A stretch of 10,452 nucleotides of DNA from a virus: UHGV virus genome UHGV-0316020; one strand, given 5' to 3'. The translations under genes and the position numbers were made by a program. This document shows, piece by piece, positions 221 to 10,452 of the stretch (position 1 is its first letter; each line of letters begins with the position of its first letter). The notes beneath the pieces were generated by a model, which was not told the DNA's origin, did not search any database, and was given only the letters and a program-made list of their open reading frames with translations.

Positions 221-287
221 CTCAGCTACTGGATATTGACGCTTATCAACTGTAATTTTCAGGGGCTATGAAGCCCCTTTTTATGTC

Positions 288-1058
288 TCAATAAGTGCCC
301 TTCTTATTCGGATTCACAGAGTACTTTCGTAAAGCATTACCCGACTTAAGCACTTTTGAAGCCTGCTCATTAGCTGAGGCTGTGAAGGTGCTCTCACCAT
401 TTTTAACGCTAACGCTCTTAGAGCACGTTACACGGGCTTTTAATGCTTCATCTGATAACTCACTTGCCGAATAGCTAAAAAGCTCTTTACAGGTCAGCAT
501 AGGTCTTCCAAGACTCGTTGTAGTGTTGCCAGTGTTCTTTTTACTGGTAGCACCACCGTCATTCGTGGTAGCAGTTTTGCCAGTAGCTGCTGAAACATCA
601 GTTTGCCCTACGATTGAACGAAATTCTACACCTTGGAAGGTCATCTGAATACGAAGACCATTAGCAATGGTATGCTCTTTACTCGCTTTAAACTGAGTAA
701 TGATACTATCAGTGATAGATATTCCATCTTTACAAACAATAGTGATGATTTGCTTCTGGTCTCGCCATTGTTCAACCGTAGAAATAAAGGTTTCTACAAG
801 TTGCCCCTGTCTGGTTAATAGAACTGAACCCGTCGAATCAACCACTACAACACCGCTGATAGAGATGGTCTTAGGTGCTCTCTGAACATTATCAGTTATA
901 GTTTGCCCCGATTGCATAGCCTGAGTTGTCACCATCATCGGTGAGTCATAGTCCATCTGTTCAGTAGCTGTTAAGGCAAGAAAAGATTCTACATTATCTC
1001 TAAGGTGAAAATAGATACCATCTTTACCTGAGTATCTAATTTGCTTTGTGTCAAACAT
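288..1058 (-). CDS. phage tail protein encoded immediately downstream of the tape measure gene (possibly distal-tail/Dit-like); function not recognised from sequence
   Basis: 256-aa ORF; RBS AGGA 9 nt upstream of the ATG; same strand and directly downstream of the tape measure gene; beta-rich N-terminal half, Thr/Ser/Gly-rich linker, small C-terminal domain. Product assignment is by synteny only. Confidence 0.4.
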
Positions 1059-1189
1059 TGTTGTTATTCCTATTCTGTTAAGCGTGAGCTACGTGAAATC
1101 TAATTTTTGATGTTGGTATCTGTTCAGAAGAAATCACGTAGCATTCGACTATTCATAGTTGAATCGTCATACTAGATAAAGATTAATAG

Positions 1190-1207
1190 ATTGCCATGTG
1201 TGGCAAT
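1190..1207 (-). terminator. weak hairpin (ATTGCCA-tgtg-TGGCAAT) 25 nt downstream of the tape measure stop; possible partial terminator or RNA processing site
   Basis: 7-bp perfect inverted repeat with 4-nt loop; on the minus strand it is followed by a moderately U-rich stretch, not a clean U-tract. Confidence 0.25.
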
Positions 1208-1231
1208 AAATATTAGTAGTTCTAACATTGT

Positions 1232-3298
1232 TTATTCCTCTGGGTAAGCTGAGCTAATCAAGGTATCTTCCTGCATACGATTAATATGAGATGTGGTTCT
1301 TTCATCAATAACCTTTCCATCAAGTACCGTCTGAGTTGTGATATTGATTGTCTGAGGCTGAATGTTTACTGACGGCTTGATAACCTTTAAATCTTGTGTG
1401 AATGTTTCCACTCGACCTTTCAGATTATTTAATGCTTCAGGTGAAAACTGTGGAACATCCTTTGATTTGCCCTGAACCATAGCCCATAAAACAGCAGCTA
1501 AAGAGTTCATGTCACCAGTCAATGCTTGGTCTGTGGGTTCCACCTTTGACCTTACAACTTTGTCAATTGGATTATCTGACTTACTCATCTGACGTTCATA
1601 GAACGGTTTAACAATGGAGTTAATCACATCAGTTGCCATACCGACAATCATTACTTTGGTAATTGCATCAGCTACAGATAATTTTCCTTTACCACCTTCA
1701 ACACTACCGGAACGTGAATTAATTCTTCCTGCTGCTGTATTTGCTACATTTCCAAGCGTGGAAATAGCCCTAATTAAGCTCCAGATGCCACCTACAGCAC
1801 CAATACCAGACCTTACAGCAACAATACCAGCAAGTCCCTTTAATGCACTTAACAGGCCATTTGCGATACCATCAGCTACAGCTTTTTGAGTGTCATTTAA
1901 TTCTCTGTAAGCAAGGGTCACTCTGTCAAAGAATCCCTGCACTCGGTAGCTAATCGTGGTTAAATCATCAATACCGTTTGACATACTTTTCATCAAGTTG
2001 CCAAAATGTTCACCAAGATTTTTAGATTGCCCACCTAGCGAATTAAGTAAATTAGTCAGTGACCTTGTAAAGTCTGTTAACCCTTCCTGTGAACCATCGA
2101 ACATTAAGGCCAGATTATTATTCCATGAATTACTTAAGCGGCCTAACTGCGTCTGAGTAGAGTTAATAATCTTTTCCCATCCACCCGCTTTATCAATCAT
2201 CAAGCCCATCTGTTTAGCGACTTTAGGGAGAACATCTTTAGAAAGAACCTTACCGTCTTTCATGGCCTTGTCTAATTCTTCCGTAGTCATCCCAAGGCTT
2301 CTGGCAAATAACTGGAAAGCACCTGCCATTCTGTCACCTAGCTGACCGCGTAACTCTTCAGCTTGAATCTTTCCTTTAGAAGCCATCTGCTCGAAAGCTT
2401 TTAGAATCCCGTTAATCTCATCAGTGCTTAAACCCATTAGTCGGGATGTACCAATCACATTAGAAAATAAGGATTCTTTCTGGTCTGCATTCATATCACC
2501 AGCACCAGCGGAAAACTTAGCAAAGCTGCTTAATGTCTCAATCTGGTCTACACCAGTATTATTAGCAAGATTCTTAACAAATTCTGTAGCTCGTTTAGCA
2601 CCTTCATCACCTAAAACGAATTGTGCCGCTCGTTGTGATGCTTCTTTTTTCAGACCAACCTCCATAATCCGCCTGTAAGCTTCTAAGGCTGTCTGAAAAC
2701 TATAAATGGCTGTACCTGCTTTGATTGCACTTGTAGCTAATACATCCAGACCATTCGAAGCATTTTCACTGTGATTATTTTTGCTGGTGGTCTTGTTAAA
2801 CTTAGAAAGTGTTTCACGTAGATTTTGATTTAACTTTGCTAACTCACGATTAAAAGCTTCGTTCCCAAGTGTCTTGGATTTACTGCTTAAGCTGTAATAC
2901 TGGCTTCTAAAATACTTCTCAAGCAGAGGATTAAAGTCACGAAGTTTGCTCATATTCACGCTATGCGCTGCTGTGATTGCTCTGTTGCCGCTAATTCGTG
3001 GTTGCCTTGCTGCTTTAACAGTTTCTTCAACCTGAGTTTTGAACTTAAAGACCTTCGTAGATTTGGCTCTTTCCTCCAGCTTATTAAAAGTCTGGTTAAT
3101 CTTCTTTTCCATATTCCCCAAAGAGGCTGTTAAATCCTTATCCATGCTCTTTGGGTTAACTTTAAATGCTTTATTTAAATTACGCTCAATCTTTGTAGCT
3201 GACTGCAAAGCTGCCTTTTCAACTCTTTGCAGTCCCTTAATAACGTTCTCATTGAAGCCTAGCTCAACGATAAAACTATCAACTGTGAATTTGCTCAT
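1232..3298 (-). CDS. phage tail tape measure protein (TP901-family-type core)
   Basis: 688-aa ORF with helical repeat-rich N-terminus, a conserved tape-measure core (..EELRGQLGDRMAGAFQLFARSLGMTTEELDKAMKDGKVLSKDVLPKVAKQMG..) and a Gly-rich hydrophobic segment (GIANGLLSALKGLAGIVAVRSGIGAVGGIW); RBS GAGGTGA upstream of the ATG. Confidence 0.85.
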   Translation of the reverse strand: MSKFTVDSFIVELGFNENVIKGLQRVEKAALQSATKIERNLNKAFKVNPKSMDKDLTASLGNMEKKINQTFNKLEERAKSTKVFKFKTQVEETVKAARQPRISGNRAITAAHSVNMSKLRDFNPLLEKYFRSQYYSLSSKSKTLGNEAFNRELAKLNQNLRETLSKFNKTTSKNNHSENASNGLDVLATSAIKAGTAIYSFQTALEAYRRIMEVGLKKEASQRAAQFVLGDEGAKRATEFVKNLANNTGVDQIETLSSFAKFSAGAGDMNADQKESLFSNVIGTSRLMGLSTDEINGILKAFEQMASKGKIQAEELRGQLGDRMAGAFQLFARSLGMTTEELDKAMKDGKVLSKDVLPKVAKQMGLMIDKAGGWEKIINSTQTQLGRLSNSWNNNLALMFDGSQEGLTDFTRSLTNLLNSLGGQSKNLGEHFGNLMKSMSNGIDDLTTISYRVQGFFDRVTLAYRELNDTQKAVADGIANGLLSALKGLAGIVAVRSGIGAVGGIWSLIRAISTLGNVANTAAGRINSRSGSVEGGKGKLSVADAITKVMIVGMATDVINSIVKPFYERQMSKSDNPIDKVVRSKVEPTDQALTGDMNSLAAVLWAMVQGKSKDVPQFSPEALNNLKGRVETFTQDLKVIKPSVNIQPQTINITTQTVLDGKVIDERTTSHINRMQEDTLISSAYPEE

Positions 3299-3347
3299 TC
3301 ATGTTTTTCACCTCATAGACTTCGGATAGAAGACTATCCTCATATAC

Positions 3348-3388
3348 AAAAAAGGGAGAGCTACCGATGTCACTCGATAATCTCTCCC
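3348..3388 (-). terminator. intrinsic terminator-like hairpin between the 70-aa ORF and the tape measure gene
   Basis: GGGAGAG (3354-3360) pairs with CTCTCCC (3382-3388), 21-nt loop with an internal CGA/TCG pairing; on the minus strand the stem is followed directly by UUUUUUGU (complement of 3346-3353). Confidence 0.45.
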
Positions 3389-3414
3389 GTTGATTTTTAC
3401 CCAACCAATTCTTT

Positions 3415-3627
3415 TTAATGTCTGACAAGATAATGTAATTCCGTTTCACCTATGATTTGGGCATCAGAAGGGATACGGTCGATACACCACTTTGGAATCT
3501 TGCGTGTTTTTGGTTTGTGTGAGGTGATGTAATGACGGTTATTCTTAATTCGTAGCTTTTGTCTATTTGGTTGTAGCTGGAGTCTTTCGCAAACAGACCG
3601 AATAGTCTCTAAACGTTCTTCAAACAT
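3415..3627 (-). CDS. hypothetical small basic protein (70 aa)
   Basis: ORF with RBS GAGGTGA 6 nt upstream of the ATG; starts 23 bp after the stop of the 234-aa ORF; Lys/Arg-rich; no motif recognised. Confidence 0.6.
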   Translation of the reverse strand: MFEERLETIRSVCERLQLQPNRQKLRIKNNRHYITSHKPKTRKIPKWCIDRIPSDAQIIGETELHYLVRH

Positions 3628-3650
3628 TAATCACCTCACATATTGCATAA

Positions 3651-4355
3651 TCAAACAGCCTTGCTAAATTCTCGTGGAACACTCAGAAAATCATTGAAGC
3701 TGATAATCTGTGCCAACTCTTGACGGTACTCCTTAGCCAGCGCTTGATGGTCACTAATCAGCTTAGCCAGTCTTGATTTCAGCAAATTAATCTCATTTTC
3801 TCTTGCTTTCATCAGTTTCTCTTTGGCAATTTCTTCAAGCTCAGCTTGTGATTTATCAGCAACAATTAGAGACAATCGATGTGGTGCTCTGACAGCTCTT
3901 TCTGTACGAATAACTCTTTGACCTTCTGGTAAATCTGCAATCACTTTACCAATCTCTACAGGGTCATACCCCCAACCGTCACGGTCTAGTCGAGAGAAAT
4001 AAGCATAAGAATTGGTTTGAAGCTCCATTAAAATAGCCATTTCGTCAATTTCGTCTTCAAGCTTGGACTGAATTTTCTCGTAAACACTTCTCATTGCTTC
4101 TTGAGAGTCTTTAATAGCTTGGAAATATCGGCGTTGTAGCTTCAACTTCAAATCAAGTTCACACCGTTCGTTCATAGAAAAATCAATTTCAACTCTTGGA
4201 ATCTCTAGTGGTTCTGGTGGAATATATGGACCTTTATTTACTTCGTGTGATTCCCGCCAAGCTCTATCAAAAGATTCACGCAAACTTAATTCGTGAATAT
4301 CAAGTGCACTTGGTCTGTTCTCAACAATCATTTCGTGTTCATTACGAATAGACAT
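3651..4355 (-). CDS. hypothetical protein (234 aa) with coiled-coil-like C-terminal half
   Basis: ORF with strong RBS AAGAGGTGA 7 nt upstream of the ATG; charged heptad-like C-terminus (..EINLLKSRLAKLISDHQALAKEYRQELAQI..); no family recognised. Confidence 0.7.
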   Translation of the reverse strand: MSIRNEHEMIVENRPSALDIHELSLRESFDRAWRESHEVNKGPYIPPEPLEIPRVEIDFSMNERCELDLKLKLQRRYFQAIKDSQEAMRSVYEKIQSKLEDEIDEMAILMELQTNSYAYFSRLDRDGWGYDPVEIGKVIADLPEGQRVIRTERAVRAPHRLSLIVADKSQAELEEIAKEKLMKARENEINLLKSRLAKLISDHQALAKEYRQELAQIISFNDFLSVPREFSKAV

Positions 4356-4463
4356 TATTTTTTCACCTCTTGGTTTTTGTTTGTTTGTTTTTCAATTTAT
4401 AGAAGCACACTCAGCAATCAGAGGTGAAGAGTCTGACTGAACAAGAACCTGCCAAGTGTGCCT

Positions 4464-4536
4464 TTAAAAACTGAAAAAGCCCTAAACATAGGTGATTCGG
4501 ATATTCATGGAATCATCCTTATCTGTGAAGGGCTTT
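4464..4536 (-). terminator. compound stem-loop with trailing U-tract in the 3' region of the small-protein operon (non-canonical terminator candidate)
   Basis: Outer stem AAAGCCCT (4476-4483) / AGGGCTTT (4529-4536) with inner stem TGATTC/GAATCA; on the minus strand followed by UUCAGUUUUUAAAGG. The loop is long, so the terminator call is tentative. Confidence 0.3.
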
Positions 4537-4596
4537 GGAGGTTTGCTTTATAACGTTAACGAAGTTTCAGGAAAAACTTTCTTTAAAAGCTCTGTT

Positions 4597-4635
4597 TAAA
4601 AACTCTTAAAGAAAGCCCTAACTCATGATTAGGGC
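4597..4635 (-). terminator. intrinsic terminator-like hairpin for the minus-strand small-protein operon
   Basis: Stem GCCCTAA (4615-4621) / TTAGGGC (4629-4635), 7-nt loop; on the minus strand followed by UUUCUUUAAGAGUUUUU. Confidence 0.45.
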
Positions 4636-4864
4636 AAAGCTGTAAAGGATTCAATAACGAATGAACAAAGACTTTTTGAGATGACCTCTCAAGTTATATA
4701 AGAGGTCATGTAGCGAAAAGCATTGCACCTTTCCAACTCAGAATATAGTTATCATCGATGTAGAATGATTAATATTTTAATTCAAGGAGAATTGCTCTCC
4801 CTATATATAAAATTATGTCATGCTCAAGGTTATTTGTCAACAGCTTTTAACAGATTGGTAACAT

Positions 4865-4930
4865 TTATACTTTAATAGATGCACCTGCAATCATACCAAT
4901 CAATACAAAACAGATAATCACCAATTCCAT
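4865..4930 (-). CDS. candidate 21-aa hydrophobic peptide (MELVIICFVLIGMIAGASIKV), translationally coupled to the 107-aa ORF
   Basis: Its ATG overlaps the TAA stop of the upstream ORF (TAATG at 4928-4932); GAGG lies about 10 nt upstream; the peptide is essentially a single transmembrane-like helix. Not in the supplied ORF track because it is too short. Confidence 0.35.
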   Translation of the reverse strand: MELVIICFVLIGMIAGASIKV

Positions 4931-5253
4931 TAATGCACCACCCTCGAATCCGTCACCAAAATATTGTCAGCGTACAAAATTGCTATAGCCGCCTTGAGAT
5001 ATTTTTCAGGGCTAACGCTGTATCGGTTAGTTTCCTCAATAATAAGGCGCTTCATGTTTGAGTCGGTAACGGGAAACATAAAACGTGGGTCACCAGTTTC
5101 AATTTCCTGAATAAAATCTTCAATTGTTTCTGAGTTATCAGCCATTAGCTTTAGTAATTTATCAAAGTCAATTGATACACCGGAATCACTGAAAGCCTGA
5201 ATCATCAGAGCGGTGTCGCTATCAACGAAAATCTGTAGCGGGAAATTATTCAT
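4930..5253 (-). CDS. hypothetical acidic protein (107 aa)
   Basis: ORF with RBS AGAGGA 7 nt upstream of the ATG; acidic composition; no motif recognised. Confidence 0.65.
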   Translation of the reverse strand: MNNFPLQIFVDSDTALMIQAFSDSGVSIDFDKLLKLMADNSETIEDFIQEIETGDPRFMFPVTDSNMKRLIIEETNRYSVSPEKYLKAAIAILYADNILVTDSRVVH

Positions 5254-5391
5254 TTTTAAAATCCTCTAAAAACACATCTTAAATCTGCCAAAATAGCCAT
5301 TCTGAGGCCAGTAACCATGCGGGTTACAGAGGGAGTGAGACACCTTAGTAATAGGGTAGCTCATCTTTGAGTCTCACTCATTCTCACAGAC

Positions 5392-5778
5392 TTACACAGA
5401 CGCTTTAATCTTGTAGTATTGACTACGTGATAAACCGTATTTCTCAGAAATATAACTTTGTGATTGTCCTTTGGTGATTGCATCAATGATTAAATCTTTA
5501 TCGTATCTGTTGCCATTGGCTTTGTGCTTGTCACCATTTTTAATAGAGTTGAAACTCTCAATTAATTTAATGGCGTCTTTAAGGTCGTCTTCGTAAGCAT
5601 AATCAAAACCCCTGATAAACTCGAAATCACCATTATCTTTTTGTGCTTCAGTCCAGATATCAAATCTTGAGGCTAATTGCTGGTGGGTAAACTTGGGTTT
5701 ATTGGTTTGTGTTACGTCTTTCCAGACTTTACCGTCAAATCTTACCAAATGGTCACGATGTTTATAAAAGTCATACAT
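5392..5778 (-). CDS. hypothetical protein with C-terminal helix-turn-helix (possible transcriptional regulator)
   Basis: 128-aa ORF; its ATG overlaps the stop of the upstream 93-aa ORF (TAATG at 5776-5780); C-terminus SQSYISEKYGLSRSQYYKIK has the helix-turn-recognition-helix pattern. Confidence 0.65.
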   Translation of the reverse strand: MYDFYKHRDHLVRFDGKVWKDVTQTNKPKFTHQQLASRFDIWTEAQKDNGDFEFIRGFDYAYEDDLKDAIKLIESFNSIKNGDKHKANGNRYDKDLIIDAITKGQSQSYISEKYGLSRSQYYKIKASV

Positions 5779-6059
5779 TAAACCTCCATCGCTAATTTGT
5801 GAATTTTGATGCTTAGCAACCTTGCTAAATCCAGTCCAAAAGCATTTAAAGATTTCAGACTATCAAGGTCATCTTGCTTAATCCTGATATGGTGTCTTGC
5901 AGCCTCTAAGCGACTATTAAGCAAATCTTGTTCGTTAATATCACGGTTAATTGCAAGCTTCATCACTGCTGAGTGTGGCAGACCTGTAATGTTTTTGATT
6001 CGGTTAAGTTCTTCAAAGGCTGTCTTTGTAACTCTGGTTAGCGTGTGTTTATTTCCCAT
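5778..6059 (-). CDS. hypothetical protein (93 aa; start revised to the internal ATG)
   Basis: The track ORF 5778..6161 overlaps the upstream gene by 100 nt and has no RBS; the ATG at 6057-6059 (MGNKHTLTRV..) is preceded by AGAGGAA and sits 2 nt after the stop of the 184-aa ORF. Confidence 0.6.
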   Translation of the reverse strand: MGNKHTLTRVTKTAFEELNRIKNITGLPHSAVMKLAINRDINEQDLLNSRLEAARHHIRIKQDDLDSLKSLNAFGLDLARLLSIKIHKLAMEV

Positions 6060-6060
6060 T

Positions 6061-6615
6061 TTAAAATTCCTCTGCTTGTGCGTATACGTCAAATTCAAAG
6101 TCTGGTTCACTGGTTGTAAGGCTGATATTTCCAACTTCCGCATGATGATTAATTGTCTCAATAACTTTCATACAAATAGTGGCTAAGTTAGCGCAATATT
6201 TATCACTTGGTAATTCGTAGCTAAGTCTGGTTGCTTGTCTTTGAAGATGGCTCGTCACTGTGCTTGAACTAATCTCATCAAGACTTCGCAGTAAATAAAA
6301 AACCTTCCGGTGATAATTATCTCTTCCAAGACTGCGACAAGTACCGATAATTACATCTTCAATTTTTGATGGTAGTTGCTCGTAAGAATCAAAGCTCATC
6401 AAGAAAGTTTTTAAAGTATTCTCTTTTTCTTTGCGTACTGGCATAAATCTGTCTCGTGGCGTAATGCTACGAATGACCGCTTCAATGTTTTTACGTTCGG
6501 TTTTGGAAAAGGCTGGTACTTCGTAGCTGGTGGGGGTGTCTGTGTAAGCGTAGGAGTTGTGCTTGTTGCGTTCTCTTGATGCCTGAAGCATCGCTCTAAA
6601 TTCTGAATCCTGCAT
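6061..6615 (-). CDS. hypothetical protein (184 aa), first gene of the minus-strand small-protein operon
   Basis: ORF directly downstream of a TTGACA-17-TAGTAT promoter; GAGGG upstream of the ATG; no motif recognised. Confidence 0.7.
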   Translation of the reverse strand: MQDSEFRAMLQASRERNKHNSYAYTDTPTSYEVPAFSKTERKNIEAVIRSITPRDRFMPVRKEKENTLKTFLMSFDSYEQLPSKIEDVIIGTCRSLGRDNYHRKVFYLLRSLDEISSSTVTSHLQRQATRLSYELPSDKYCANLATICMKVIETINHHAEVGNISLTTSEPDFEFDVYAQAEEF

Positions 6616-6666
6616 TCATATTCTGACCCTCATGAGATGTTATTATTCTGTTAACTTATATATACA

Positions 6667-6695
6667 ATACTAGCATTTTCAAAGACTAATGTCAA
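6667..6695 (-). promoter_or_regulatory. sigma70-like promoter for the 184/93/128/107-aa operon
   Basis: On the minus strand: TTGACA (complement of 6690-6695), 17-nt spacer, TAGTAT (complement of 6667-6672), about 50 nt upstream of the ATG at 6615. Confidence 0.5.
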
Positions 6696-6702
6696 GCATT
6701 TT

Positions 6703-6732
6703 TTAACATTTCATTAACATCTGTGGTATAAT
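6703..6732 (+). promoter_or_regulatory. divergent sigma70-like promoter with extended -10
   Basis: TTAACA (6703-6708), 18-nt spacer, TGgTATAAT (6724-6732); its -35 lies 8 bp from the -35 of the minus-strand promoter, giving a back-to-back arrangement. Confidence 0.45.
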
Positions 6733-6912
6733 GGTTCTATGAGAGAGGGAAAAATAGAAAAGGCGTGGCTATGTATTTGGTCGCATGTTTTGCATTGCAC
6801 ACAGACCTCTTCAATCGCTCTGTAACGAGTTAAATGGCCTCTTCAGGTCAACTATAAGGTCAGGTACTTTTTGTATCAGAATGCGATTGAGAGCGTCTTA
6901 CAAGGAAAACTA

Positions 6913-7089
6913 ATGGTAAATCTCCCTCCTGAGCTGGGGTCACCTGATGTATGGGCTGGTGGAGGCGTTGGGCTGATTGCAGGTCTGCTACTCCGCTACG
7001 TCCTCGTCAGAGTGCTTGTTGTCTTTAAACTGTTCGGTCGTACATGGACGCTTGACCTTAAGGATAATGACCACACAGAACCCCGTTAA
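6913..7089 (+). CDS. small single-pass membrane protein (58 aa)
   Basis: ATG at 6913 preceded by AAGGAAAA at about 6-nt spacing; the track ORF starts further upstream at a TTG with no RBS. Hydrophobic segment WAGGGVGLIAGLLLRYVLVRVLVVF. Looks more GC-rich than its neighbours. Confidence 0.5.
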   Translation: MVNLPPELGSPDVWAGGGVGLIAGLLLRYVLVRVLVVFKLFGRTWTLDLKDNDHTEPR

Positions 7090-7147
7090 CCCCCCTTCAA
7101 AACCCCCTGTACGAGATGACAGATAGAAGTCTATGGTATAGGGGTGC

Positions 7148-7190
7148 CTTTAGCATTTTGTGCTATCTATTAAAAAATAGCTTGACAGAA
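7148..7190. repeat. copy 1 of an imperfect direct repeat (CTTTAGCATTTnGTGCT..TTATTAA..CTTGACA) that flanks the methyltransferase cassette
   Basis: Aligns with 8272-8340 (about 22 of 26 matches in the first block plus a shared CTTGACA block); copy 2 carries an internal ~22-bp duplication. Confidence 0.5.
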
Positions 7191-7211
7191 CCGGAAAGCT
7201 GTACCTATCAA
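7182..7211 (+). promoter_or_regulatory. possible plus-strand promoter that would read antisense into the methyltransferase 3' region
   Basis: TTGACA (7182-7187), 18-nt spacer, TATCAA (7206-7211); no plus-strand ORF downstream. Confidence 0.25.
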
Positions 7212-7495
7212 GTATTCACCTCTCTGACAGTAACTTCTAAAAGTTCTTATTTTTCAATGAGTTGTAATCACCCAATATAAAGGACTGACAAGACTCTTCA
7301 CAGAGAACTTCCTGGACTCACTAAGATACAAGGCGATAACCCCAAAAAGGGAGAGCCACCTTCTTAACTGCCCCCTTAAACAATCTTTACAGACCCCGTT
7401 CACCAGTCTCAATATTTTATTTCTCGCTCTTCGTTTGTTGCTCGTTTCTATTATTGAGGGGGTTTGAAAAACCTCTGTAAAATAACCCTTCCAGT

Positions 7496-7528
7496 AAAAA
7501 GCGAATAACCCCAGAAAGGGGAAATCGC
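7496..7528 (-). terminator. intrinsic terminator of the methyltransferase gene
   Basis: On the minus strand: GCGA-UUU-CCCC-UUUCU-GGGG-UUAU-UCGC followed by UUUUU, about 40 nt after the stop at 7569. Confidence 0.55.
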
Positions 7529-7568
7529 CTCTTTAACATTCTCGTAATCAGTGCTCTATATGAGAATT

Positions 7569-8237
7569 TCAGCCCAACCTTTGAACAATCCTGTAAGTGG
7601 TGCTTAGAGGCATTCTTAGCGATTCTGCGATGCTCTTGATGGATTGCCCTTGGTCATGCATTTTAATCAACCTGTCAAGCGTCTGTGCATCGTGTATATG
7701 AGGTCTTCCACGTAAACCACCCCTGTTAACCACGGCAAGTAAAAGCATTGTGTCGCCACAATAAATTGTCTGGGTAACTTCAACTTTCGGTTTGCGGGGT
7801 GTGTTCCTGTATATCAAAACGCAACTTGGAAACGGTGAACGCGCTGCAACACCTTTCTTCCCTGCTGGTGGAAGGTATTTGACTGCTCGGTGTAACGTTC
7901 GAATCTCATGCAGGAAGGGGTTTGTATATACACACCGAAGCCAGTAAGTTGTCTTTGACCTGTGCGGAACCAGACATACACACACATCAGCTTCAGGGGC
8001 TTTTGAGAGGAACTGTTCAGCCATGCTAAACGGCGGGTTAACGAAGACCCGTTCACCAACCCACGATTGACGGCTTATATCATCGGTGAACCGTGGCAAC
8101 AATGCGTCATGCTCAGTTGCAGCACCATCTAAAGTGAAGTTAAACTCACGATGCAGGTTATGAAATAAACGATACGGTGTACGCCAGTCATCAGAACCAC
8201 CATGATAACGACCGACATTGATTATTGGATGTGACAC
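7569..8237 (-). CDS. Dam-family (phage-type, PF05869-like) DNA N6-adenine methyltransferase with a C-terminal serine-recombinase-like GRP+HTH extension
   Basis: GTG start with RBS AAGAGGGG upstream. N-terminal ~150 aa carry DWRTP, FTLDGAA, VFVNPPFS (NPPF catalytic motif), CLVPHRSKTTYW and FPSCVLIY. The final ~55 aa (..NRGGLRGRPHIHDAQTLDRLIKMHDQGQSIKSIAESLRMPLSTTYRIVQRLG) resemble a resolvase/invertase C-terminal DNA-binding domain. Confidence 0.8.
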   Translation of the reverse strand: MSHPIINVGRYHGGSDDWRTPYRLFHNLHREFNFTLDGAATEHDALLPRFTDDISRQSWVGERVFVNPPFSMAEQFLSKAPEADVCVCLVPHRSKTTYWLRCVYTNPFLHEIRTLHRAVKYLPPAGKKGVAARSPFPSCVLIYRNTPRKPKVEVTQTIYCGDTMLLLAVVNRGGLRGRPHIHDAQTLDRLIKMHDQGQSIKSIAESLRMPLSTTYRIVQRLG

Positions 8238-8271
8238 AAGCGAAGCGCCCCTCTTAGTATATTTCTTAATC

Positions 8272-8340
8272 GTCTCTTTAGCATTTAGTGCTTTTTATTA
8301 AGTTTAGCACTTTTTGCTAAAGACAAAACACTTGACAAAA
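8272..8340. repeat. copy 2 of the imperfect direct repeat flanking the methyltransferase cassette (with an internal duplication TTTAGTGCTTTTT / TTTAGCACTTTTT)
   Basis: See copy 1 at 7148-7190; lies directly upstream of the methyltransferase start codon. Confidence 0.5.
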
Positions 8341-8745
8341 TGGTAAGATTGTTCACATGACCTTACTTAACAGATTCTTAAGAGCTTTGAAACGAACTGT
8401 TTAACAGGTCACTACATCTGGTCTTATCGTTCCCTGTCTTCTTGGTAGTTCTGTTAAGTATCTTTTCAGGTATCTCTTACAGTCACTGTTAAGATGATAC
8501 TCTCCCTTCGGGTTATATCGTATCTCTCCTCCCGTTAAATACCCCTTCACAGTCAGACTAAATAACACCTGTGTAGTTTCTTGGTAGAATCTTTCAAGGT
8601 AACTTAACTCTGAGTTTATGAAGTTGACCTATGAGATAGATTCTACCGAATCTGTTAGTCAATTGTTGCTTAGGTGCTGCTAAGGCTTACTTAGTGGGAA
8701 GAGAGGGAATATGTGACCATAGGAACCCCTCCTGTTAAAAGTTTC

Positions 8746-8773
8746 TTGACGTTACTATCTCGATATGTATAAT
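8746..8773 (+). promoter_or_regulatory. strong sigma70-like promoter (TTGACG, 16 nt, TATAAT)
   Basis: TTGACG at 8746-8751; TATAAT at 8768-8773 preceded by TG; a CCTGTTAAAA motif (8731-8740) abuts the -35. Confidence 0.6.
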
Positions 8774-8779
8774 GGCTTA

Positions 8780-8950
8780 CTGTACTAGGTTTACTTCCAA
8801 AGCAACCAAGCACACTCTCTATGGCAGTGTCCGGCGAGGTAAGGTCGTGTAGGGTGCGGTTCGGTGGGGTAAGGTTTGGTGCGGTATGGGTGGATTGTCG
8901 TAGCCACGTTAAAAATCGACTTATAGGGACTCTTTCGGGAGTCCTTTTTA
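8780..8950 (+). ncRNA. candidate ~170-nt G-rich small RNA delimited by promoter and intrinsic terminator; class unknown
   Basis: Predicted start about 7 nt after the -10 and end at the terminator U-tract; body contains tandem GGTAAGGT / GGTGCGGT units (8838-8895); no RBS-equipped ORF inside. Confidence 0.4.
8927..8950 (+). terminator. intrinsic terminator: GGACUC(U)-UUCG-(G)GAGUCC hairpin followed by UUUUU
   Basis: 7-bp stem including one G-U pair (8927-8933 / 8938-8944), UUCG tetraloop (8934-8937), T-run at 8945-8949. Confidence 0.6.
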
Positions 8951-9126
8951 GTTTGTATAAAATCTGTACAGTAACTTTTCAGAGTCTGAAAATTTTTATA
9001 AATATCGTAGTAACCCCTCTACATTCCCCTTCACCGATAATCTTAAAAATATCTGACAGATGTCTGTAGCTGCTAAGTACCCGTCACACCAGCTATGTGA
9101 CCCCCTTGGCAAAAAAGCCAAATATC

Positions 9127-9144
9127 AGCTACATCCATGTAGCT
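9127..9144. other. palindrome AGCTACAT-CC-ATGTAGCT, 11 bp downstream of the recombinase stop: recombinase terminator hairpin and/or crossover-site-like sequence
   Basis: Two perfect 8-bp inverted half-sites around a 2-bp spacer; on the minus strand followed by GAUAUUUGGCUUUUUU. Confidence 0.35.
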
Positions 9145-9154
9145 ATTCAGTAAC

Positions 9155-9703
9155 TTATTTAGCAAGTCTGTAATAAGTTGCTCTAGAGATTCCTAACTCT
9201 TCCTGAATCTGCAACCTCGTCTTACCTTGTGAAATAAGCGCCTGTACAGCCTCTGAAGAAGCTTTTACAGGCCTCCCCATATGTACCCCTTCAGCTTTAG
9301 CACGTTCAATACCAGCCTTTCTACGTTCACTGATAAGGTCTTTTTCAAGGTCAGCTAAACCAGCCATCATAGTAAGCATTGCTTTACCGATTGGTGTAGA
9401 CAGGTCAAAACCTTCACGTAAAGAAACAACCCTCACACCTTTAGTCTGTAGTGCCTCCACGTTAGAGAGCACATCAACGGTATTACGCCCTAAACGGTCA
9501 ATAGCTACCACAACTAACGTATCGTCACACCTTACATAGTTCATCATGTCTCTAAAACCATCTCTGCTGGTGGCCTTTGTAGCTCCTGAGACAGCCTCAT
9601 CAATAAACCATTTATCGACCTTGTGAACCTTCTCTATCTGTAGTTTCTGGTTGTCTACAGTCTGGTCTTGTGTTGATACCCTGCAATAACCAATCACCGC
9701 CAT
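9155..9703 (-). CDS. small serine recombinase (resolvase / Hin-Gin-type invertase family)
   Basis: 182-aa ORF; N-terminal IGYCRVSTQDQ with the catalytic Ser at position 10; VVAIDRLGRNT; E-helix ..ERRKAGIERAKAEGVHMGRP; C-terminal HTH LQIQEELGISRATYYRL; RBS AGGGG upstream of the ATG. Confidence 0.9.
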   Translation of the reverse strand: MAVIGYCRVSTQDQTVDNQKLQIEKVHKVDKWFIDEAVSGATKATSRDGFRDMMNYVRCDDTLVVVAIDRLGRNTVDVLSNVEALQTKGVRVVSLREGFDLSTPIGKAMLTMMAGLADLEKDLISERRKAGIERAKAEGVHMGRPVKASSEAVQALISQGKTRLQIQEELGISRATYYRLAK

Positions 9704-9719
9704 AATGTTCCCCTAAGAA

Positions 9720-9825
9720 GTCTCAAAAGTTGGTCTCATAAGTTTAGCTGTCTCATAATTCAAAAACAAGCTTATGAGACACTTGGAAGGTGCATTCTAC
9801 CGTTACGTTGAAAGTGTCTCAAAAG
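9720..9825. promoter_or_regulatory. array of five GTCTCA(A/T)AA(G/T) repeats (four direct, one inverted) directly upstream of the recombinase start: operator- or iteron-like
   Basis: Copies at 9720-9729, 9733-9742, 9750-9759, 9771-9780 (inverted) and 9816-9825; 9733-9742 and 9771-9780 form a perfect 10-bp inverted repeat. Confidence 0.45.
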
Positions 9826-9962
9826 GACTTCCTTTTAAGACTGGTTATGAAGGAGCTATGAAGATTTTAGGAAGGTAACTATAACCATCACTTTCTAACT
9901 TTCACGTAGGAAATCGTTAAGTTTCTTGATAGTTACACCACGTAACCAAACATCTATACATC

Positions 9963-9984
9963 GCTATATAGCCCTGTATATAGC
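9963..9984. repeat. palindrome GCTATATA-gccctg-TATATAGC (operator-like)
   Basis: Perfect 8-bp inverted arms with a 6-bp spacer. Confidence 0.4.
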
Positions 9985-10126
9985 ACTTTTCTAGGAGTCG
10001 AGAGAGGGACGACTAACACCCTGCATAGTTCCCTGAAAAGGGACTTCACAGATTCTTTATATATTTCAATAAGTTATGCTAAAAAGAGACTATACCGATA
10101 CTGCATAGAATCTGTGTAAAACTGCT

Positions 10127-10371
10127 TAGATACTTGGAAATCTACTATTAAATTGCATAGTCATTCACCTGATATTGTCAAATGATTATGACTTCAATGA
10201 CCCTTGAATGAAGTCTATTCGGTTTTCTAAGAGACCTGTTAAAAACAGGACAATATCAGGTGAATGACTATGCAATTTAATAGTAGATTTCCAAGTATCT
10301 ACCTGTTTTTAACAGGTCTCTTAGAAAACCGAATAGACTTCATTCAAGGGTCATTGAAGTCATAATCATTT
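10127..10371. repeat. interleaved inverted repeat A-B-A'-B': A 10127-10179, B 10180-10249, A' 10249-10301 (reverse complement of A), B' 10302-10371 (reverse complement of B)
   Basis: Verified base by base: 10249-10301 is the exact reverse complement of 10127-10179, and 10302-10371 is the exact reverse complement of 10180-10249. B ends in the near-palindrome CCTGTTAAAAACAGG. Confidence 0.8.
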
Positions 10372-10452
10372 CAGTAGAAAAACCAGGTCTCGATTTTAAA
10401 TGCAAATAGCAATCATATTCAATAAGGCAAGACGATCAGGATCAGTGAAAAT

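Follow-up and report, generated by a model that had tools for sequence, protein, structure and literature searches.

A probable three-subsite res site upstream of a small serine recombinase gene in a phage-like island of Escherichia coli

Res and crossover sites of described serine recombinases

The res site of Tn3/gamma-delta (114 bp; sites I, II and III; recombinase TnpR) is located directly upstream of the gene of a ~180-aa serine recombinase. Read from the tnpR start it consists of site III (25 bp), a gap of 5 bp, site II (34 bp with an A-tract spacer), a gap of 22 bp and site I (28 bp). The Tn3 consensus is TGTCYNNTA. In general, a three-subsite res of the Tn3 type holds six 12-bp half-sites in three dimer-binding pairs, each of them a dyad, within ~110-120 bp. 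The hix and gix sites of the invertases Hin and Gin are subdivided as 12+2+12 with an asymmetric 2-bp core and an A-rich inner half-site (TTATCAAAAACC), and invertases rely on a remote Fis-bound enhancer, mostly located within the gene of the invertase, not on adjoining accessory recombinase sites.

In Tn3-family res, site III is proximal to the gene, the crossover takes place in site I and the promoter overlaps res (PMC7157771). The central dinucleotide of Tn3 site I is given as TA (PMC7157771) or written AT (PMC12217951). The centres of sites I and II are separated by whole helical turns, 4-7 in number (PMC12217951), and Tn3-like res sites keep an A-tract in the spacer of site II (PMC9943657). 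Sin resH and beta six of Gram-positive plasmids carry a direct head-to-tail accessory site beside the recombinase gene (PMC2428073; PMC9943657). A serine resolvase together with its res removes tandem multimers of the integrated island SGI1 (PMC12217951). Finally, the crossover site of Hin/Gin measures 26 bp, and a core mismatch blocks ligation in serine recombinases (both PMC4513852).

We analysed a stretch of 10,452 nt, referred to as the window, in which a repeat array precedes a small serine recombinase gene. Probably, positions 9720-9841 represent the res site of this adjacent recombinase and may double as an autoregulatory operator of its promoter. The res site is of a well-known kind, and its layout mixes features of Tn3, Sin and the invertases.

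Half-sites, promoter and comparison with known layouts

The motif GTCTCAWAA has five exact matches in the window, at 9720 (+), 9733 (+), 9750 (+), 9772-9780 (-) and 9816 (+), compared to a mean of 0.33 in shuffled sequence; none of 200 shuffles reaches five. Hence the repeat array described in the initial annotation is real. All matches are confined to 9720-9824, with none elsewhere in the 10.4 kb of the window. The count of five holds for exact copies but overlooked a sixth, degenerate half-site (GTCTTAAAAGGA, minus strand, 9830-9841), which together with 9816-9827 builds the 26-bp palindrome GTCTCAAAAGGA-CT-TCCTTTTAAGAC. The feature therefore extends over 9720-9841. It comprises six half-sites of 12 bp with the consensus (T)GTCTCAAAAGG, arranged in three pairs over 122 bp in total. 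The features of the locus are:

9155-9703, minus strand: small serine recombinase gene, 182 aa (Pfam Resolvase 9.8e-42, HTH_7 8.9e-6)
9709-9716, minus strand: ribosome-binding site AGGGGA, read from the sequence, 3 nt from the first half-site
9720-9744, plus strand: proposed site III (gene-proximal accessory site), direct repeat GTCTCAAAAGTT-G-GTCTCATAAGTT, 12+1+12
9750-9780, no strand assigned: proposed site II (accessory site), inverted GTCTCATAATTC / GTCTCATAAGCT (minus), 12+7+12
9794-9822, minus strand: predicted sigma-70 promoter of the recombinase gene, TTGAGA-17-TAGAAT, 10 of 12 matches
9816-9841, no strand assigned: proposed site I (crossover site), palindrome of two 12-bp half-sites around CT, 12+2+12, 26 bp

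As the gene is encoded on the minus strand, the array is located directly upstream of it, in agreement with the initial annotation; the first copy lies 17 nt from the start codon and, as also stated there, near the ribosome-binding site, adjoining AGGGGA. The perfect 10-bp inverted repeat with 28 bp between its arms is likewise present (GTCTCATAAG at 9733-9742, CTTATGAGAC at 9771-9780). A more meaningful pairing than this one is that of TGTCTCATAA (9749-9758) with TTATGAGACA (9772-9781), 13 bp apart. Inverted half-sites are restricted to sites I and II; those of site III run in the same direction, both here and in every relative. Start-to-start spacing of the half-sites is irregular (13, 17, 22, 44 and 17 bp). 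The centres of sites II and III are 33 bp apart and those of sites I and II 63.5 bp (62.5 bp in some relatives), corresponding to ~6 helical turns, with a linker of 35 bp between sites I and II. The 7-bp spacer of site II is part of an A-rich stretch (TTCAAAAACAAGC). Cleavage is predicted at the central CT of site I (9828-9829). Rfam and tRNA scans of the window gave no matches.

The predicted promoter is the top sigma-70 match within 9500-10452. Its -35 element (TTGAGA) is located inside the left half of site I and its -10 element (TAGAAT) in the linker between sites I and II, so that sites II and III come after the predicted transcription start but before the ribosome-binding site. The -10 element (GCATTCT on the plus strand) is kept in many relatives but not in all of them. 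In L003, L006, L007 and L009 an additional half-site-like sequence, TTTCGAGAC (minus strand), is found in the I-II linker ~97 upstream of the start and occupies the place of the -10 element of the window. The overlap of the sites with the predicted promoter and leader makes autoregulation of the recombinase, as in Tn3/gamma-delta (PMC7157771), plausible, seemingly secondary to a role as res. The initial annotation had interpreted the array as an operator for repression or autoregulation. The overlap with promoter and leader agrees with that part of its reading, whereas the features of the array mark a res site and not a plain operator.

The recombinase consists of a catalytic domain with Ser10 and a C-terminal HTH_7 domain. 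In PDB it is about equally close to the Gin invertase (1e-22) and gamma-delta/Tn3 resolvase (4e-21), Gin being marginally the closest, and both PDB and PHROG give DNA invertases as best matches. Sin is distant (E 8e-15). The R-interface residues R2/R32/K54/E56 of gamma-delta align with A2/K31/Y56/R58 and are thus not conserved.

Compared to Tn3, the order of sites is the same when read from a Tn3 copy, with site III nearest to the gene and site I farthest. Both arrangements have three dimer sites built of 12-bp half-sites starting with TGTCT, an A-tract spacer in site II and an embedded promoter, which in the window is a predicted one. Tn3 site I-left (TGTCTGATAATT) equals the window sequence TGTCTCATAATT (9749-9760) in 11 of 12 bases. 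The distance between the centres of sites II and III is similar (33 bp compared to ~34.5 bp in Tn3), and the I-II distance of ~6 turns falls within the described range of 4-7 (PMC12217951). There are clear differences as well. The half-sites of site III are direct repeats here but inverted ones in Tn3; site I has 26 bp and an asymmetric core, in contrast to 28 bp and a palindromic central dinucleotide; site II is 31 bp long instead of 34 bp, and the I-II linker of 35 bp is one helical turn longer than the 22 bp of Tn3. Moreover, the gamma-delta/Tn3 R-interface residues are absent from the window recombinase, and the present system comes without a transposase and is hosted by an integrative phage-like island. 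Because of the direct repeat in site III and the changed R-interface residues, a synaptic complex of the Tn3 type cannot be assumed in detail.

Site III resembles the direct accessory site of Sin resH and beta six. Res of Sin, however, has two recombinase sites and an HU/IHF-bent spacer within 86 bp, while in the window a third, inverted site II lies in between. SGI1 shares with the window a three-subsite res upstream of a serine resolvase gene in a chromosomal island (PMC12217951). Its res is different in having 107 bp, a 28-bp boxI with the core AC and Tn3-type subsites, and SGI1 is a plasmid-mobilised island whereas the element in the window is phage-like and integrated by a large serine recombinase.

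With its 12+2+12 form, its asymmetric core, its A-rich inner half-site and its length of 26 bp, site I matches a crossover site of the hix type (26 bp; PMC4513852). One might therefore regard 9816-9841 as one of two inverted crossover sites of a Hin/Gin-type DNA invertase and the other repeats as regulatory, a reading in line with the top PDB and PHROG matches and with a phage-like setting that includes tail genes. The hix/gix systems have an inverted partner site, though, and no second site-I-like inverted pair was found in the window or in the 34 kb of the complete chromosomal locus L023, which argues against an inversion switch. In addition, sites II and III adjoin site I in the order III-II-I, the arrangement of resolvases, in place of the remote Fis enhancer used by Hin and Gin. 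We thus regard an invertase as very improbable.

Conservation, covariation and recombination joints

Relatives of the recombinase were collected from IMG/VR (L001-L003) and from GTDB species genomes (L005-L020). The conservation scan covered 19 relatives with recombinases of 65-99% identity from at least 15 Enterobacterales genera; they include Escherichia albertii, Rahnella, Mixta, Klebsiella, Leclercia, Erwinia, Mangrovibacter, Buttiauxella, Enterobacter, Serratia, Kosakonia, Pantoea and Biostraticola. Here the half-sites start at x, x+13, x+30, x+52 (-), x+95/96 and x+112/113 (-), a layout fixed to within 1 bp in nearly all of the ~20 relatives, the exceptions being L017 and L014. The 13-bp start-to-start spacing of site III is found in all 19 scanned relatives and in L026. 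The 26-bp site I is recognisable in 17 of the 19 as well as in L026; in L017 it has been lost to an IS, and in L014 one half of it is replaced. An alignment of ten sequences (A1) shows little or no variation in the half-sites and in the site II A-tract/CAAYC beside the right arm, whereas linkers and flanks diverge. Such a rigid geometry over 122 bp is a requirement of a structured multi-dimer complex, and a simple operator would not need it. A search of IMG/VR for the exact 26-bp site I gave no match, and the site III/II pattern was found there in three contigs only, all already known.

Plasmid relatives were found as well. pIGAnt1, a 3.6-kb plasmid of Halomonas with four genes, encodes a recombinase 61% identical over 141 aa, and that of the E. 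coli plasmid pEC224_4 is 53% identical. Both plasmids keep the layout of sites III and II, while site I is kept in pIGAnt1 only. Their half-site reads RGCTCAWAA and the recognition helix GIS(P/T)ASVKRACR instead of ISKATFYRL; the half-site therefore covaries with the recombinase helix. As pIGAnt1 carries only four genes, the role of the resolvase there is plausibly multimer resolution alone. The more distant plasmid homologues of Neisseria (L029) and Oceanisphaera (L028), 48-52% identical, have no clear upstream array.

The initial annotation had also considered iterons of a replication origin. In origins of this type, repeats of one orientation stand at regular intervals beside a rep gene and an AT-rich unwinding region. 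Several short repeats in an intergenic region, situated in pIGAnt1 between a rep-like gene and the recombinase gene, would suit such an origin. But the repeats are of mixed orientation with two inverted pairs and irregular spacing, the island has no adjacent rep gene, and the array always accompanies the recombinase gene rather than rep, its sequence tracking the recognition helix. The iteron proposal is thus unsupported and has next to no chance of being correct.

Mobile elements have entered two of the arrays. In pEC224_4 (L027, ~2865-2900) the end of a TnAs1-family (Tn3-like) transposon follows site II and replaces the linker and site I. In Pantoea dispersa (L017, ~2940-2960) an IS with the start of an IS3-like transposase lies within site II. 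These interruptions are reminiscent of res-targeting transposons, and res sites of the SGI1 type also suffer transposon insertion.

Besides the recombinase the window encodes a Dam-like N6-adenine methyltransferase with a C-terminal resolvase-type HTH_7 domain (7569-8237, minus strand), classified by PADLOC as an orphan methyltransferase. It was rejected as binder of the array: its HTH and that of the recombinase share only 30% identity, and its gene is missing near most relatives that retain the array.

Comparison of related loci revealed natural joints at site I. Over 3.7 kb, L003 and L008 share 96% identity, but this homology stops precisely where site I has its outer edge. Homology ends there too between L003 and L007 and between L012/L013 and L018. 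Such breakpoints could alternatively mark the end of a conserved module. The homology of L014 to L012 and L016, in turn, stops at the central dinucleotide of site I, the pattern expected from a crossover at the centre of the site. Beyond this joint L014 matches L016 ~870 bp farther out, where the half-site-like sequence GTGTCGAAAGTC abuts the joint, consistent with a putative ~870-bp deletion to a half-site-like sequence.

The core dinucleotide itself varies. It is CT in the window, in strain CUPS04 and in the L003 group, AG in E24377A, MRE162, E. albertii and others including most E. coli tonB islands, and GA in the L012 group. As mismatched cores block ligation, the CT, AG and GA variants should not recombine with each other.

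These data bear on a purely transcriptional reading, in which the recombinase or another HTH protein of the island represses the promoter and no recombination takes place. Promoter and leader do overlap the sites, each locus has a single copy of the array, and the window encodes other HTH proteins including the methyltransferase described above. However, repression would require neither six half-sites fixed within 1 bp over 122 bp nor a 12+2+12 palindrome with the form of a crossover site. Neither does it account for homology joints at the centre or edge of site I or for the identical layout on a four-gene plasmid, and the methyltransferase is a poor candidate given its divergent HTH and patchy occurrence. 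An operator without recombination is thus quite improbable. Taken together, the six half-sites, their fixed spacing, the 26-bp palindrome, the order III-II-I and the breakpoints at site I point to a res site and not to a plain operator.

Host island, proposed reaction and implications

The host is a ~11.7-kb phage-like island of E. coli inserted at the 5’ end of tonB beside yciI (window 224-10356; L023 10411-21998; also in L025 and L033). It comprises, in this order, a large serine recombinase (Resolvase, Recombinase and Zn_ribbon domains), a Dit-like baseplate protein, a tape measure protein, several unknowns, the Dam/HTH_7 gene, the small recombinase, the res site and ~500 bp up to the junction; chromosomal sequence resumes at ~10344 of the window. 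Of 5,426 complete E. coli genomes, 191 carry recombinase and array, in each case chromosomally, and the layout is also the same in island alleles that share only ~81% DNA identity. Tape measure and Dit-like baseplate protein are the only recognisable virion genes. Comparison of the other island genes with PHROGs, PADLOC and NCBIfam yielded the DNA methyltransferase only, most genes having no family match. Near-identical phage records were not found. In appearance the island is a small but stable phage-like element, perhaps a satellite, and not a prophage decaying at random.

Both ends of the window show peculiarities. Positions 1-223 are the end of the IS256-like IS1414, 99.6-100% identical to many plasmid and chromosomal copies, and stand where other strains carry the large serine recombinase gene (the integrase side). 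At the other end the 13-bp sequence TCAATGACCCTTG spans the tonB start codon (window 10344-10356; L023 10411-23). In L023 it is found at the tonB start by the integrase side; in the window, each of the two inverted copies of the yciI-side junction contains it. TCAATGACCCTTG is likely the attachment core of the large serine integrase, with the island rebuilding the first tonB codons. Positions 10127-10371 form an interleaved perfect inverted structure A-B-A’-B’ with arms of 53 and 70 nt, in which 10180-10301 is the exact reverse complement of the flanking A.B’ including the island/tonB junction. Related genomes have A.B’ only, and the duplication occurs in none of the 5,426 complete E. coli genomes. 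Either this is an artefact of assembly, or the junction has undergone a rare inverted duplication. Just past the chromosomal junction, L001 (1239-1787) and L002 (~1259-1786) carry the gene of another small serine recombinase, unrelated to the first (~31% identical).

The present analysis establishes the sites, their conserved geometry, the covariation with the recognition helix, the promoter match and the natural joints at site I; from these we infer that the recombinase binds the array, catalyses recombination with topological selectivity and represses its promoter, and also what its biological substrate is. Three recombinase dimers would bind the six 12-bp half-sites in sites III, II and I. 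The substrate would be two directly repeated res copies on one supercoiled molecule, whose accessory sites II and III would interwrap and thereby activate the dimers at site I. These would cut both strands at the central CT, rotate by 180 degrees and religate, which would delete the DNA between the two res copies and so resolve a multimer. Occupancy by the recombinase would also shut its promoter, since site I covers the -35 element and sites II and III occupy the leader up to the ribosome-binding site, and the enzyme would thus limit its own synthesis.

The window and the 34-kb chromosomal locus contain a single res copy each, so that the natural substrate is inferred: the excised circle in dimeric form, or islands integrated in tandem, are the likely candidates. 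SGI1 is a direct precedent for res-mediated removal of multimers in an integrated island.

A further suggestion is more tentative and has a minor chance of being right as a whole. Enterobacterial prophage-like islands and plasmids may share a distinct res architecture in which site II is Tn3-like, site III a direct repeat as in Sin and the 26-bp crossover site of the invertase type, with the lineage-specific cores representing incompatible res types and site I serving as the joint for cargo exchange. Beyond site I, L006 carries two tandem AbiTii genes (758-2597). Defence-like cargo beside the res/recombinase module of relatives is observed at this position as well as in L007 (315-2201) and L012 (4149-6502). 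Downstream of the recombinase, relatives encode an IrrE-like peptidase/HTH gene and a Beta_protein gene.

No new type of mechanism is revealed by these data. They annotate a so far unlabelled 122-bp regulatory and recombination element in ~190 of 5,426 complete E. coli genomes, with exact coordinates for the predicted crossover point, and indicate that a three-subsite res can combine features thought typical of separate systems (Tn3, Sin and invertases). This may be of use for comparing the accessory-site control of serine recombinases and for mining orthogonal pairs of recombinase and site. For the elements themselves, a joint at site I explains the abrupt change of sequence at one spot beside them. 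If the more tentative suggestion holds true, site I would be the joint at which variable cargo beside the end of the element is swapped between elements.
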